Counted from the stretch's first letter, positions 18,449 through 22,992 are shown. The stretch: 64,000 nucleotides of DNA from Pseudomonadota bacterium (GCA_018242545.1 JAFEBT010000001.1:23180-87179), one strand, 5' to 3'. The notes: generated by a model not told the origin, from the letters alone. Made by a program: numbers and translations.

Positions 18449-19372
18449 TTAATAGTCAGTTCCTTCATCGACAAATATTTTTAAAAGTCTTTGGAAGCCA
18501 GGATCTTTTTGATTTAATAGCTCAAGGTATTTTTTATAAGAAATCTTACCATTTTTAATATATCTTGCAGCCATCGTCACATCTAAAGGAAAATGGGGAA
18601 TGTGGTTTAAAAATTGCAAAGCTGCTTCTCTTTCTTGAAGGTCTAAAACGTTCGGAGAGAAGTCAAAGAGGATTGAAGAAAAAAGAGTTAAGGCCTCTTC
18701 TTTTTGAAGTTCTCCAACTTTAATAATATCCTCAGGCTTTAAATATTTATAATCTTTCAAATTTTCATCCCGTGTTACCAAAAGTACCTTCCCTGTTCCC
18801 CAAAGAGCTGTATCTTGAGGAAGATAATTTTCGATCTCAGAAAAATTTTTGATATTGTCATATATAAGAAGCCAATTCTTATGGTTTTTAAGAATCTTTT
18901 TTACAAAGGAAAGAAATGAGAGAGCTTGGGTCTCTAAATCTTCTATGTTTTCAATTTTTATAAGTTCTTCTTTCTCTATATGTGTCGTTGCTAAAGAGTA
19001 GGCAAAATCCTTAAAAGAGTGACTTAAGGTTTCTTTATTTTCCGCATTAAACTCCCATACAATTTTGTCATGTTGCGCATATCCATAATATCGCGCCAAA
19101 ACTGTTTTCCCGCTTCCCTTTTCTCCAACAAGCGCAATAACATCTATTCGATTTTCTTCCAGACCCTTACCTTTTTCCTCGATCTGAGAGACAAGCTGAG
19201 GACGCTTAAGAAGCGTGTTTTCTTTGGGAATAACCAACTCAGCTTTTACATTTCTAAGTGCATAATCTGGTTTATATATTTCCTTTGAAAAAAAGGCGAC
19301 AAGACTGAGAATAATCCCAATAAAAAAAAGAGTATAAATTTTTCTTTTTAACTGAATCGAATAAAAAAACAT
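18449..19372 (-). CDS. Truncated paralog of the LuxR-NB-ARC-TPR family: N-terminal TM helix plus NB-ARC/P-loop NTPase domain only
   Basis: 307 aa. Residues align closely with the NTPase portion of the 1143-aa neighbour: LLKRPQLVSQIEEK...IALVGEKGSGKTVLARYYGYAQHD...NWLLIYDNIKNFSEIENYLPQD...GKVLLVTRD...FPLDVTMAARYIKNGKISYKKYLEL versus LLKRFDLISKIDEK...GMGGVGKTTLARYYGHMQHD...NWVLIYDNVENFSEIKNYFPQD. Confidence 0.7.
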   Translation of the reverse strand: MFFYSIQLKRKIYTLFFIGIILSLVAFFSKEIYKPDYALRNVKAELVIPKENTLLKRPQLVSQIEEKGKGLEENRIDVIALVGEKGSGKTVLARYYGYAQHDKIVWEFNAENKETLSHSFKDFAYSLATTHIEKEELIKIENIEDLETQALSFLSFVKKILKNHKNWLLIYDNIKNFSEIENYLPQDTALWGTGKVLLVTRDENLKDYKYLKPEDIIKVGELQKEEALTLFSSILFDFSPNVLDLQEREAALQFLNHIPHFPLDVTMAARYIKNGKISYKKYLELLNQKDPGFQRLLKIFVDEGTDY

Positions 19373-19560
19373 TTTAAATCTCTTAAATCTTTCTTACTTT
19401 GTTAAAAGTCTCTGGCTTTTATAAGACGGAGACTCAAGAAAATATATATTTTCTAATTAATAATTATCTTTAAAATATCAAAAAGAAATTATATATCGAT
19501 TTTTATCAAATAACGTACCGTACCTAACAATTTTCTGATCTAATTTTTCTCAACACGCTT

Positions 19561-22500: not shown

Positions 22501-22992
22501 AGAAAGAGAAACACCACTTTCTAATTTTTGCCGAGAAACATGAATTCCAGCCTCTTTTAAATTCTTTTCAAACTCAGTTAAAAAAGCCATCACTGACGCA
22601 TTCTTCTCATGAGTTTCTTTAAAGGCAATTAAACAGGAAGGAGAGTGCTTTCCAACAAGGAGAGAAACTTCCTTTAGTTTCTTGGTAAAATCAGCCTGAA
22701 TGGCAATAACTTGATAATGATATCTAAAGAAAGGAAGACTTCCAGATTGCTCAATGCAATTAATAATTCCTTCACGGGAATTACAGCCGAGTTTTTGCAT
22801 AATATTCCGAATATGATTATCGATGGTCTTTACAGAATTGGAAAGAATTCCGGCAATTTCTTTTACACGACGACCCGTCAAAATACACGAGATCACATCC
22901 AACTCTTTTGGTGTGAAATCAATGTCTTTTGTCATCTTAAAATATTTATTATAATTACCATCTAAGAAATTAAATGTTATCGGCATTTCCAT
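19561..22992 (-). CDS. Large STAND protein: N-terminal LuxR/GerE-type HTH, single hydrophobic helix, NB-ARC (AP-ATPase) NTPase, C-terminal TPR array
   Basis: LuxR HTH: FTPKELDVISCILTGRRVKEIAGILSNSVKTIDNHIRNIMQKLGCNSREG. Hydrophobic helix: ILISIILLFVVSGAFALYML. Walker A: GLVGMGGVGKTTLARYYG. Walker B-like: WVLIYDNV. C-terminal repeated LG..Y...G.Y..A TPR units (for example ALGNVYLYLGDYEKATNLL, FLGKAYMKLGDYQKARVYLEKAL). Confidence 0.8.
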   Translation of the reverse strand: MEMPITFNFLDGNYNKYFKMTKDIDFTPKELDVISCILTGRRVKEIAGILSNSVKTIDNHIRNIMQKLGCNSREGIINCIEQSGSLPFFRYHYQVIAIQADFTKKLKEVSLLVGKHSPSCLIAFKETHEKNASVMAFLTEFEKNLKEAGIHVSRQKLESGVSLSGAMKKKEKNSSTSIFYVMPFEDIKNKEEENELEKNITPILVKKKDIFEESPEDSKTQDQQKNYYDSFFEVLQKILPTISLDAIISNFESAYKLKQYSAQDGILSLKSASFGPSENKETLNYSPYHISKKILISIILLFVVSGAFALYMLSPQEKNIKSDLILPTENTLLKRFDLISKIDEKMRGENGIQTVALVGLVGMGGVGKTTLARYYGHMQHDAVVWELNAENKSTLMASFNDLAYSLAKTKKQKEDLEFIQKISDLQEREKQILSFVKETLKEKKNWVLIYDNVENFSEIKNYFPQDPDVWGYGKVILTTRDSNINNTSYIKSENIIEVGELQSEEALKLFSSILFDMPFDKIPQTEKEKILKFLDSIPPFPLDVSLAARYIKNGKISYEKYLELIQHSNEDFENTHEQLLKEASDYTKTRHKIVTLSLEHLLSMHPDFKDLLILMCLLDSQHLPVDFLKTAKSETVVEDFIHALHKYSFVSSGTLGPLNPLPTHSMHRSTQEISLSHLISKLNLAKNDHLIKRAMNVIENYIDNILEKEEPVTIQAMTRHCKKLLSHSYLLTKDALYTLRSKLGHMYYYANEASYQEAQKILEENIRSMDGDENFKNKNNFDDLIALGLIYSETSDIKKLKETVDTTLLKYKKILSERTPKAASALSFLGMMYDDLGDYTQGQQLIERACALYKNDFPNDLIGLGRTLAYLGRVYREQGKYELAQKVLEESYEIYKNNGLEKHFRTGWTLVALGNVYLYLGDYEKATNLLSESVQIYKDYFPDDPFCKCWAALDLANAYIEQGNPKKACEILEECLDIYKKRPDLYPETHYTVVRVIAFLGKAYMKLGDYQKARVYLEKALPIFEMNYGKEHLETAYVLTLLGELDLLEEKFEASEKSLKNALSIFVKNNHPEAYKPFEDLFNLSLKFYEKNLKEKGSIEALRIKEESLLSLKQVLEHVIAHFPKDAPHFLTIKKRLENMKLI

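Follow-up and report, generated by a model that had tools for sequence, protein, structure and literature searches.

Putative membrane-anchored NB-ARC switches with LuxR-type DNA-binding heads in amoeba-symbiont-type alphaproteobacteria

Introduction

STAND and NLR proteins are usually treated as cytosolic switches, and their known bacterial transcription-factor members, namely MalT, GutR and AfsR, are soluble. GutR of Bacillus subtilis combines an N-terminal helix-turn-helix, a STAND NTPase and TPRs, and its ATP binding is induced by ligand. Regulators of the ToxR, CadC and TcpP kind have their DNA-binding domain at the N-terminus, in the cytoplasm, followed by a single membrane helix and, across the membrane, a C-terminal sensor. 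STAND transcription factors such as MalT, GutR and AfsR form an established class (PMC13581612; AfsR preprint), and AfsR and GutR are named among the non-immune STAND regulators (PMC13581612). Among immune proteins, bSEFIR has been shown experimentally to be an antiphage gene (bioRxiv 10.1101/2022.05.11.491447).

The family analysed here places a conserved, predicted membrane helix between output and switch. It was noticed in an earlier note on 64,000 nucleotides of a Pseudomonadota bacterium (GCA_018242545.1, JAFEBT010000001.1:23180-87179), a stretch hereafter called the window. The order of N-terminal DNA-binding domain, NB-ARC and TPR is not without precedent, since it is that of AfsR and GutR (PMC13581612). 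The note's expectation that this is not a well-described regulator class has held: the literature on NB-ARC in combination with LuxR, transmembrane or Holosporales yielded no description, and a 2025 Holosporales review uses none of the words NB-ARC, TPR, tetratricopeptide and LuxR. We regard the family as undescribed and as coming from amoeba-symbiont-type alphaproteobacteria.

Results

Three members of the family lie in the window as open reading frames at the coordinates first reported, two of them long (W1 and W2) and one short (W3). Their features are the following.

19561-22992, minus strand: W1, full-length member, 1143 aa; ORF with the order helix-turn-helix (HTH), TIR-like domain, transmembrane (TM) helix, NB-ARC, TPR
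22744-22917, minus strand: W1 LuxR/GerE-type HTH, aa 26-83
22219-22707, minus strand: W1 TIR/SEFIR-like domain of alpha/beta type, aa 96-258, divergent and probably without catalytic activity
22114-22218, minus strand: W1 disordered basic linker, aa 259-293, preceding the TM helix
22045-22113, minus strand: W1 predicted TM helix, aa 294-316, the sole hydrophobic peak of W1 (KD(19) 2.6)
21988-22044, minus strand: W1 juxtamembrane segment, aa 317-335, motif (R)SDLxIP...LxR, from conservation among 96 sequences
20893-21987, minus strand: W1 NB-ARC nucleotide-binding oligomerisation module (NBD-ARC1-winged helix), aa 336-700, from Pfam NB-ARC, motifs and Foldseek
19564-20892, minus strand: W1 helical spacer, kinesin-light-chain-type TPR sensor (TPR_12) and C-terminal cap, aa 701-1143
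18449-19372, minus strand: W3, short paralog, 307 aa; ORF with a basic N-tail, a TM helix and then the NBD/ARC1 of NB-ARC only
19286-19339, minus strand: W3 predicted TM helix, aa 12-29
46844-50317, plus strand: W2, second full-length paralog, 1157 aa; ORF, coordinates checked by translation
46910-47083, plus strand: W2 HTH
47117-47593, plus strand: W2 TIR-like domain
47699-47773, plus strand: W2 predicted TM helix, aa 286-310
47840-48943, plus strand: W2 NB-ARC
48944-50314, plus strand: W2 divergent C-terminal repeat region

The proposed paralogy is borne out, with W1 and W2 sharing 32% identity over their full length (E 7e-140) and W3 sharing 54% identity with W1 aa 295-586 (E 4e-99); tblastn found no fourth copy in the window. 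W1 has an ortholog in the relative L001 (77% identity, dN/dS 0.125). W3 had been read as a truncated copy, but it is a conserved gene and not a decaying fragment: its ortholog in L001 has the same length, 74% identity and a dN/dS of 0.134, which rules out a pseudogene. A W3-type short gene is present also in the relative L008, and the W3 NB-ARC matches Pfam at E 2e-10. The W1-type long gene and the W3 short gene are both under purifying selection, and W3 is a conserved short form without head and without sensor.

Two other genes in the window adjoin family members. A 531-aa membrane protein is encoded next to W3, and the syntenic relative L001 gave its only other occurrence. An HTTM-DCC1 gene sits 10 bp upstream of W2. 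Both are absent from the recurrent neighbour families. Promoter and terminator scans of positions 18000-24000 gave counts no different from shuffles.

The N-terminus of the long proteins is built in the order LuxR HTH, long helix and degenerate TIR/SEFIR-like domain. Pfam GerE recovers the LuxR/GerE HTH seen earlier, at aa 26-77 of W1 (46.3 bits, cutoff 23.5) and in W2 (30.0 bits), and the four-helix GerE fold (PF00196) is present in the family head. In conservation the HTH ranks second among the regions, with a mean pairwise identity of 49% compared with 29% in the TPR, and this argues for DNA binding as the output.

The hydrophobic helix had been placed directly after the HTH. However, about 200 residues intervene and are predicted to fold as an alpha/beta domain, a putative divergent TIR/SEFIR-like domain of about 160 residues that the earlier note missed. 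Its profile aligns with the heads of TIR-headed relatives in hhalign at 99.2% (E 6.6e-20, 169 columns), and because those heads themselves match TIR_2 (E 4.5e-14 to 4e-8) and SEFIR (3e-8), the middle domain of W1 and W2 appears homologous to bona fide TIR heads. A direct TIR or REC match was considered and rejected, as the W1 and W2 middle domains had no Pfam match at E up to 10 and a PDB profile search with profile A3 returned nothing relevant; one relative (P0098) matches TIR_2 at E 0.028. The putative TIR-like identity is carried solely by profile-profile and fold evidence. The column of the catalytic Glu is a gap in 67/97 LuxR-type members and holds Glu in 12/97, and the Glu-bearing loop has a median of 19 residues in these members versus 31-33 in the TIR-headed relatives, where the Glu is retained. 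The domain in W1 is probably catalytically dead.

By HMM and by fold, the central domain is an NB-ARC STAND module, as the earlier note had it. Pfam NB-ARC scores 55.5 bits at aa 339-524 of W1, 59.2 in W2 and 40.6 in W3 (cutoff 23.5), and Foldseek matches the W1 NBD-ARC to ZAR1 (6j6i, 6j5t), NRC3, NRC4 and Sr35 (E 1.6e-8 to 5.5e-7). The Walker A reported as GMGGVGKTT is intact in W1 and W2, together with a Walker B of the form hhhhD-N, and W3 has GEKGSGKT. Across 96 sequences, the switch motifs are invariant or nearly so, namely Walker A (G362, G365, G367 and K368, 96/96), Walker B (D451 and N452, each 95/96; E454, 72/96), the Sensor-1 TTR (T478 96/96, R480 92/96), a GLPL-like PLD motif (P541 and L542, 96/96) and His667 at the MHD position (96/96), which is followed by Arg in 83/96 and not by Asp. 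Nucleotide binding thus seems to be under selection. Pfam recovers the TPR array in W1 (TPR_12, 135.7 bits, E 6e-40) and more weakly in W2; PDB profile matches of the region include KLC1/2, LGN and the AfsR TPR (8k60). This part of the protein diverges, with 29% mean pairwise identity in the family and 15% between W1 and W2.

Each window protein has one strongly hydrophobic segment (W1 aa 294-316, W2 aa 286-310, W3 aa 12-29), and the helix reported in the earlier note is real. Its position is conserved in 114/123 members, and it was found in 219/247 proteins of a larger set. Its uncharged core is 21 residues long in the median, with a mean KD of 2.3, and by a simple Hessa free energy the helix has a median of -1.4 kcal/mol, whereas the segment ranking next in each of these proteins gives a median of +6.1. 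Sequence identity in the helix is only 16%, although position and hydrophobicity are conserved, which is the signature of a lipid-facing helix. In the AlphaFold2 model of W1 (mean pLDDT 87.9, pTM 0.70), the helix (pLDDT 35-57) is isolated between disordered linkers and packed against no domain, which rules out a buried core helix. PglC-type membrane anchors are helix-break-helix re-entrant folds. An anchor of this kind, or an amphipathic one, is unlikely here, because Pro occurs at the helix centre in only 10/219 proteins (Gly in 160/219) and the mean hydrophobic moment is low (0.39). The following juxtamembrane motif is strongly conserved among 96 sequences (S322, P327 and L333 at least 90%, R335 invariant); reading the translation of the TM-less relative L007:2119-6558 did not reveal it there.

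The helix flanks have 3.7-3.9 K+R on the N side versus 2.4-2.6 on the C side. The N flank is net positive, and in 97/114 members it has the higher net charge of the two. This bias predicts an N-in, C-out orientation, and together with the 290 folded residues of the N-terminal part it suggests that the HTH and TIR-like domain are cytoplasmic. Against a clean N-in, C-out assignment, the C flank still holds its 2.4-2.6 basic residues. Should the helix cross the membrane, the nucleotide-dependent NB-ARC-TPR part would lie in the periplasm, a remarkable arrangement if true. A TIR-headed close relative in L007 (1479 aa) lacks the membrane helix, which implies that head and NOD normally share one compartment. 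The topological puzzle raised in the earlier note is a real one.

The family comprises at least 951 clusters at 50% identity. Its genes frequently form tandem arrays, the largest with four copies, and some copies are split or decayed; a single-protein search of the genome contigs returned one locus. Host association, suspected earlier, is supported by named relatives that are Holosporales symbionts and by the presence in the window of a permuted tmRNA and a cluster of virB/D4 type IV secretion genes. Recurrent neighbours of family genes are integrases, MobA/MobL relaxases, resolvases and transposases, whereas no conserved operon partner or target operon was found among 82 non-redundant loci. 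An 8-mer, TACGTAGA, which is part of the palindrome TCTACGTAGA, is strongly enriched 76-122 bp upstream of family genes in relatives (21 occurrences vs 0.28 expected) and lies upstream of 13/87 relatives. Its enrichment fits autoregulation by a dimeric HTH. The palindrome does not occur within 300 bp of W1, nor was the 8-mer found upstream of W1, and when up to two mismatches are allowed the window contains no more palindrome matches than chance would give.

Discussion

Weighing sequence, structural model and analogy, we put at about even the chance that W1 and W2 are single-pass membrane-anchored STAND (NB-ARC) switches with a LuxR-type DNA-binding output. Such a layout probably serves to link a signal with transcription. 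On the model of AfsR/GutR, and of NLRs generally, the diversified TPR array would bind a ligand or protein and thereby relieve autoinhibition of the ADP-bound NB-ARC, and nucleotide exchange would lead to oligomerisation. The glycine-rich membrane helices would then bundle and the TIR-like scaffolds cluster, and the clustered LuxR HTHs could engage DNA at the membrane and alter transcription in the manner of ToxR/CadC-type tethered regulators. The many paralogs would represent different sensors with one similar output.

A bolder version takes the predicted topology literally, with the NB-ARC-TPR part exported to the periplasm and the HTH and TIR-like head inside, so that a nucleotide-dependent NLR switch would run on host-derived ATP and signal by trans-membrane induced proximity. 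We hold this version only tentatively and consider it on balance doubtful; we know of no precedent for a periplasmic P-loop NTPase. ATP does reach the periplasm of cytosol-dwelling, ATP-importing symbionts. Nucleotide transporters are present in Holosporales (Daugherty et al. 2004, cited in PMC11909080). If true, the family would provide the first extracytoplasmic STAND NTPase and an NLR-core bacterial counterpart of the Toll-like/IL-17 receptor topology, with the sensor outside and the TIR/SEFIR-like scaffold and HTH inside.

The proteins could also be bacterial NLR-type conflict or defence sensors whose TPR recognises a protein of a phage, plasmid or other invader, the outcome being cell death or arrest (e.g. 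with the helix bundle as a pore) or a defence regulon driven via the HTH and not normal physiology. The TIR/SEFIR-headed relatives that retain the Glu match the PADLOC bSEFIR model over head and P-loop (E 1.6e-14 to 2.3e-24), and they adjoin patatin, trypsin and peptidase C25 genes and a Tn3 transposase. Mobile-element genes recur beside family genes, and the tandem arrays, the split or decayed copies and the fast-diverging sensors are as in immune receptor families. However, none of the three window proteins matches a relevant PADLOC model (in PADLOC-DB 2.0, W1 has weak HTH-region matches to CARF/CasR only, W2 and W3 none), the catalytic-Glu region is gone from the TIR-like domain of LuxR-type members, and the conserved HTH speaks for a DNA-binding output. 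The helix, moreover, stands between two large domains and not at a free end, a placement that to our knowledge is not used for the membrane effectors of defence STANDs. We therefore consider defence as the present function unlikely. What the data do point to is a conflict-system heritage rather than housekeeping regulation, because relatives match an antiphage model and the genes lie near mobile elements and other effector-bearing STAND genes. In our best reading the LuxR-headed members derive from TIR/SEFIR-type bacterial NLRs, and the earlier suggestion of a novel signalling or defence module is plausible.

It is improbable that the hydrophobic segment does not span the membrane at all and serves as a soluble oligomerisation helix, a latent helix released upon activation or a peripheral anchor, with all domains cytoplasmic. 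This would agree with the normally cytoplasmic nature of both the HTH/TIR-like and the NB-ARC modules, with the existence of a TM-less relative and with a C flank that is not depleted of basic residues, but it sits poorly with the long, uncharged and non-amphipathic core, the near absence of a central Pro, the lack of any packing partner in the AlphaFold model, and a position and hydrophobicity conserved at such low identity.

Repeat-rich multi-copy families are typical of symbiont effectors, and the present family is of this kind. The earlier idea of secreted or translocated host-targeted proteins, exported via the virB/D4 type IV system or via Sec and another route, with the helix in a host membrane and the NB-ARC-TPR mimicking or interfering with host NB-ARC-TPR proteins in the amoeba, gained no positive support in the analysis and is the least probable reading. 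In its favour, a virB4-B6-B8-B9-B10-B11 cluster lies 4 kb from W1, some neighbours of family genes in relatives encode proteins with signal-peptide-like N-termini, including two NB-ARC proteins (in L027 and L017), one also with Sel1 repeats, and for an NB-ARC-TPR homologue of Acanthamoeba a role as pattern-recognition receptor has been proposed (PMC4053784). Against it, there is no evident use in a eukaryote for a bacterial LuxR-type HTH kept at 49% identity, so hydrophobic a helix (KD about 2.3-3.0) would presumably be trapped in the bacterial inner membrane, type IV secretion genes are not recurrent beside family genes at 82 loci, and the two-compartment puzzle would be the same in a host membrane.

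Reading W1 and W2 as membrane-anchored switches leaves two options, an NLR core that is active beyond the cytoplasm of an intracellular bacterium or a new coupling between membrane anchor and NOD. The family also appears to document how a TIR/SEFIR immune effector became a dead scaffold with a DNA-binding head, a route by which immune NLRs can turn into regulators. For Holosporales biology, it adds a sensor repertoire that is large and expanding, has so far gone unmentioned and may read host or invader cues.

Comparison with known systems

Toll-like and IL-17 receptors resemble the family, by analogy only, in having a repeat sensor, one membrane helix and TIR/SEFIR signalling by induced proximity. 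Their chain polarity is opposite, they have no NOD and their sensor is not homologous. Among bacterial immune proteins, bSEFIR and other TIR/SEFIR-headed STAND defence proteins are linked to the family through its TIR/SEFIR-headed relatives, which match the bSEFIR model and whose heads are homologues of the W1 and W2 middle domain. In contrast with these, W1, W2 and W3 do not match the bSEFIR model, W1 and W2 add an HTH and have lost the catalytic-Glu region, and all three have a predicted membrane helix; in matches of TM-containing relatives to the profile, the spans imply about 70 extra residues at this site. The model for the FxSxx-COOH system TPR protein (NF040586) reaches 176.1, 71.0 and 68.0 bits, all below its cutoff of 300, and its best-scoring stretch in each window protein is the NB-ARC region.

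MalT and other LAL regulators share a STAND NTPase, a LuxR-type HTH and helical-repeat sensors with the family. As the earlier note observed, the order is reversed, with the NTPase first and the HTH last in MalT/LAL. MalT belongs to a different STAND clade and has no membrane helix, and its NCBIfam model (NF003420) matches the HTH only (26.9 bits vs a cutoff of 537). GutR, compared by description only, differs in being soluble and in lacking both a TIR-like domain and a membrane helix. The predicted topology, with an N-terminal DNA-binding domain inside and a single helix, matches that of ToxR, CadC and TcpP; those proteins, however, have OmpR-type winged helices and small periplasmic sensors, whereas the family has an 830-residue NLR module beyond the helix.

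AfsR and the other large SARP-NB-ARC-TPR regulators share the arrangement of the family, with an N-terminal DNA-binding output, an NB-ARC switch and a C-terminal TPR sensor in the same order. The switch His of the MHD/HD motif is conserved, and the family profile matches the AfsR TPR (8k60). The family differs in its LuxR/GerE head, which replaces the SARP head (OmpR-type wHTH plus BTAD), in the TIR-like domain and membrane helix between head and NOD, in the Arg and not Asp after the switch His (83/96), and in its hosts, which are Holosporales-type alphaproteobacteria and not actinomycetes; the AfsR NCBIfam model (NF053617) reaches 58.4 bits against a cutoff of 1430, in the TPR only. AfsR nevertheless provides the mechanistic precedent for an NLR-type transcription factor.

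Three paralogs, two full-length and one short

W1 and W2, the two full-length family genes of the window, have in our estimate about an even chance of encoding a membrane-tethered STAND transcription switch. The three open reading frames described in the earlier note are present where it placed them, and no further family copy was found in the window by tblastn.

Family genes in the window
19561-22992, minus strand: W1, 1143 aa
46844-50317, plus strand: W2, 1157 aa
18449-19372, minus strand: W3, short paralog, 307 aa

W1 carries a GerE/LuxR helix-turn-helix (HTH) at residues 26-77, NB-ARC at 339-524 and, between about residues 800 and 1070, strong TPR_12/TPR_10 matches, all above Pfam gathering scores. 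GerE/LuxR HTH, NB-ARC and TPR are likewise matched in W2 (Pfam), with a weaker TPR signal than in W1, and NB-ARC is the sole Pfam family in W3. Over their full length W1 and W2 share 32% identity (E 7e-140), and W3 is 54% identical to residues 295-586 of W1. Given these scores and identities, the shared architecture is real, far beyond chance, and the domain calls and paralogy of the earlier note are borne out; its placement of the hydrophobic helix right after the HTH is not, as about 200 residues separate the two.

The middle domains of the window proteins themselves had no sequence match in Pfam or PDB and are thus highly divergent. A middle-region profile built from 97 LuxR-type members aligned with the N-terminal heads of four relatives without an HTH, P0035, P0069, P0094 and P0104 (hhalign 99.2%, E 6.6e-20, 169 columns). 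The three of these heads that were scanned matched Pfam TIR_2 (E 4.5e-14 to 4e-8), and two of the three also matched SEFIR. In 67/97 LuxR-type members the alignment column that holds the catalytic glutamate in the TIR-headed relatives is gapped, and only 12/97 have Glu there; the loop bearing this residue has a median of 19 residues, compared with 31-33 in the TIR-headed relatives. With the glutamate mostly gone and the loop shortened, we infer a TIR/SEFIR-like scaffold that is probably catalytically dead.

Switch conservation was scored in a 96-sequence alignment. No sequence departs from the Walker A glycines and lysine; Asp451 of Walker B and the Asn452 after it are each kept in 95/96 and Glu454 in 72/96. 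Little or no variation is seen in the sensor-1 TTR, in the PPFPLD form of the GLPL motif or in His667 at the MHD position, and the residue following this His is Arg in 83/96, not Asp. The NB-ARC NTPase with intact Walker A and B that had been read by eye is therefore upheld, and the near-invariance of the switch motifs predicts nucleotide binding by the module, whichever compartment holds it. Between the helix and the nucleotide-binding oligomerisation module (NOD) runs a juxtamembrane motif, (R)SDLxIP...LxR, in which R335 never varies and S322, P327 and L333 are each conserved in 90% or more; it was not seen on reading the translation of one relative lacking the helix. Foldseek aligned the W1 model with the plant NLRs ZAR1, NRC3/NRC4 and Sr35, and the W1 repeats with kinesin light chain, LGN and APPBP2; the AfsR TPR was also reached by a sequence profile.

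Relatives, family expansion and a possible defence role

The helix is retained in TIR/SEFIR-headed relatives, for example P0035 (KKQLAFSLSFLSILIGISIFFQSKQ), and its presence in W3 and other head-less forms suggests that it travels with the NB-ARC-TPR module. The metagenomic contig L007 has at 185-19405 what looks like a conflict island: P0035 (TIR-helix-NB-ARC-TPR) is found there alongside a Tn3 transposase, a patatin, a trypsin-like protease and a peptidase C25, and P0094 is on the contig as well. At 2119-6558 of this contig, a 1479-aa trypsin-SEFIR/TIR-NB-ARC-TPR protein has a similar TIR head and no hydrophobic segment. We read the heads as exchangeable, and the LuxR-type proteins as having arisen from a TIR/SEFIR-type bacterial NLR through gain of the HTH and loss of TIR catalysis.

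The family search profile comprised the N-terminal HTH, TIR-like and helix region, and 951 representatives of 50%-identity clusters match it at E <= 1e-30; among the best 150 of these, nearly all span almost the full profile and most have about 1100-1300 residues. More than one family ORF occurs at 23/87 loci. Three long copies stand in tandem at L010 (1046-11459) and L068 (2896-14522) and four at L023 (4360-18122), while copies are broken into two or three adjacent ORFs at L070, L076 and L081, which together indicates ongoing gene birth and death. Clustering of neighbouring ORFs yielded no conserved partner gene; what recurs beside family genes are Sel1-repeat proteins, MobA/MobL relaxases, phage-type integrases, ABC and MFS transporters, resolvases and transposases. 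Domain by domain, the NBD (52%) and HTH (49%) have the highest mean pairwise identity and the TPR a low one (29%; 15% between W1 and W2), a pattern consistent with many sensors that share a similar output.

The tandem expansion and mobile-element neighbourhoods, together with bSEFIR-like relatives, speak for a role of these proteins as conflict or defence NLRs. The PADLOC bSEFIR model matched P0035 (E 1.6e-14), P0104 (6.9e-13) and the helix-less 1479-aa protein (2.3e-24), and bSEFIR has experimental support as an antiphage gene (bioRxiv 10.1101/2022.05.11.491447); no relevant PADLOC defence model matched W1, W2 or W3. We consider this role rather unlikely and retain the transcription switch as the preferred reading.

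Some neighbours deserve mention in their own right. A second STAND type, with NB-ARC at about residue 600, adjoins family members at L027 (5656-10023) and L017 (5469-8607); both proteins have a Sec-signal-peptide-like N-terminus, that of L027 also C-terminal Sel1 repeats, and, provided that their start codons are correctly assigned, both would be exported NB-ARC proteins. Next to P0022, L002 (5133-9641, minus strand) encodes a 1502-aa candidate host-targeted effector with a signal-peptide-like N-terminus and a class 3 lipase domain; it also contains a Gly/Ala-rich hydrophobic stretch and a long region rich in Lys/Arg, in which KKRKR (nuclear-localisation-like) motifs recur.

The hydrophobic helix and its topology

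A single Kyte-Doolittle(19) peak above 1.6 lies 25-110 residues ahead of Walker A in 114/123 family proteins, and nearly all of those 114 lack a comparable peak elsewhere. The median length of the uncharged core is 21 residues. In a larger set (n=219 proteins), hydrophobicity averages 2.3, the hydrophobic moment is low, and the central eleven residues contain Pro in only 10/219 and Gly in 160/219. The median insertion energy is -1.4 kcal/mol, versus +6.1 for the next best window of the same proteins (simple Hessa-scale sum). Family members share only 16% sequence identity in this segment, with position and hydrophobicity retained. AlphaFold models a helix at 292-311 (pLDDT 35-57) between disordered linkers, with no packing on any domain. 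The helix proposed earlier is thus substantiated by peak position, composition and energy, and its isolation and conserved position add to a description of a probable lipid-embedded helix. A core helix was rejected on this isolation between disordered linkers; an amphipathic anchor does not match the low hydrophobic moment, nor a helix-break-helix re-entrant anchor the scarcity of central Pro. That the helix does not span the membrane would make the topological puzzle vanish, but it fits the sequence features poorly and we regard it as improbable.

The 15 residues on the N-side of the helix hold 3.7-3.9 Lys/Arg and 0.7 Asp/Glu, those on the C-side 2.4-2.6 and 1.7-1.9, and net charge is greater on the N-side in 97/114. 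By the positive-inside rule, and given that translocation of 290 folded N-terminal residues is improbable, both the HTH and the TIR-like part are predicted to stay cytoplasmic. If the helix truly spans the membrane, the NB-ARC-TPR part would be periplasmic, an arrangement that we hold possible but doubtful. It is chemically conceivable only where ATP gets into the periplasm, as is the case in cytosolic symbionts importing host nucleotides; a nucleotide transporter is documented in Holosporales (Daugherty et al., 2004, as cited in PMC11909080). Interest in the family would rise sharply if the NOD proved extracytoplasmic.

The short copy

W3 consists of a basic tail (MFFYSIQLKRK), the helix and NBD/ARC1, and ends where the winged helix would start. 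It had been taken for a truncated copy. L001, which carries a W1 ortholog, has a W3 ortholog of the same length and ends at 74% identity, with dN/dS of 0.134 versus 0.125 for the long gene and 0.105 for a neighbouring gene (dS ~1.1-1.3), and W3 also occurs in L008, a 90% relative. By these comparisons W3 is evidently a maintained gene. Speculatively, it could be a decoy or a helper co-assembling with W1.

Candidate DNA targets

The 300 bp before family gene starts at 82 non-redundant loci (25 kb) were compared with the remaining 997 kb. The 8-mer TACGTAGA, on either strand, occurs 21 times upstream; its 11 occurrences in the remainder give an expectation of 0.28. It sits inside the palindrome TCTACGTAGA and precedes 13/87 genes, which represent some eight or nine independent sequence contexts, with the sites concentrated 76-122 bp ahead of the gene start and often paired, as in L009 (ATCTACGTA-N5-TACGTAGAT).

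Sites of TACGTAGA, by locus
L009: 2331-2351 and 6536-6556
L010: 932
L012: 7870 and 12489
L020: 2467-2571
L024: 7923
L027: 2197
L039: 7923
L047: 4591
L049: 3950
L061: 1410-1445
L077: 1121

Such paired palindromic sites upstream of family genes fit a candidate operator for a dimeric HTH in a subfamily, where autoregulation via TCTACGTAGA is possible. TACGTAGA is absent within 300 bp of W1, and, when up to two mismatches are allowed, matches in the window to TCTACGTAGA are no more frequent than expected by chance. The W1 5' region (window 22993-23230; L001 1160-1566; L008 40-446) contains blocks that all three orthologs have kept even at dS ~1.1, one holding CTTGACAAAAT.AATA and others TCGTTC.AT..AAACATACTTC and ATGAAGTAAG; they may be promoter or operator and leader elements.

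Host and genomic surroundings

Window GC is about 28-41%. A W1 ortholog (77% identity) with identical local gene order is found in 'Alphaproteobacteria bacterium 16-39-46'. Named family relatives are Candidatus Paracaedimonas acanthamoebae (Holosporales, Caedimonadaceae) and Candidatus Paracaedibacter sp., the others being unclassified alphaproteobacterial MAGs.

Other features of the window
16498-18093, minus strand: 531-aa protein adjoining W3, two hydrophobic segments, no Pfam match
23988-25691, minus strand: 567-aa ORF between W1 and the type IV cluster, no Pfam match
26925-36931, minus strand: virB/D4-type type IV secretion cluster
45488-46834, plus strand: fusion of HTTM (vitamin-K-carboxylase-like membrane) and DCC1-like thiol-disulfide oxidoreductase
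53841-54244, minus strand: permuted (two-piece) tmRNA gene, tag peptide ADNDNAFGVEAMNDNAPAVAAAA

Permuted two-piece tmRNA is typical of Alphaproteobacteria. The HTTM-DCC1 gene ends 10 bp before W2 and may be co-transcribed with it; the fusion is absent from the recurrent neighbour families at other loci. The 531-aa protein is syntenic in L001 (a 77% relative; 6589-8139, dN/dS 0.105), its C-terminus resembling a histidine-kinase ATPase box by eye. The 567-aa ORF has a signal-peptide-like N-terminus and is possibly secreted. The type IV cluster encodes VirB4/CagE, TrbL/VirB6, VirB8, CagX/VirB9, TrbI/VirB10 and a VirB11-like T2SSE ATPase. A 718-aa ORF at 27878-30034, flanked by the genes for VirB10 and VirB11, has no Pfam match, no P-loop and an N-terminus that is signal-sequence-like by eye, and was rejected as VirD4. 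A host-targeted effector role for the family proteins, favoured mainly by this nearby system and by lifestyle, is hard to reconcile with a conserved bacterial HTH and is the most improbable of the roles considered.

Proposed mechanism and comparison with known systems

If W1 and W2 are membrane-tethered transcription switches, the TPR array would bind a ligand or protein, the ADP-locked NB-ARC would be released, and nucleotide exchange and then oligomerisation would follow; the Gly-rich helices would bundle, the TIR-like scaffolds cluster and the LuxR HTHs pair productively on DNA. These steps are drawn by analogy with AfsR, GutR, MalT and NLRs in general, onto an architecture, conservation and homologies that are directly observed.

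We found no description in the literature of a counterpart to an HTH fused to a degenerate TIR/SEFIR domain, to a conserved membrane helix between output and NOD, or to a conserved short helix-NBD form. By membership tests, the window proteins fall outside AfsR/SARP, MalT/LAL, the FxsC-type TPR proteins and the known antiphage models. W1 and W2 genuinely belong to both the NB-ARC clade and the LuxR HTH superfamily, and their mode of working would be like that of AfsR/GutR-type STAND regulators.
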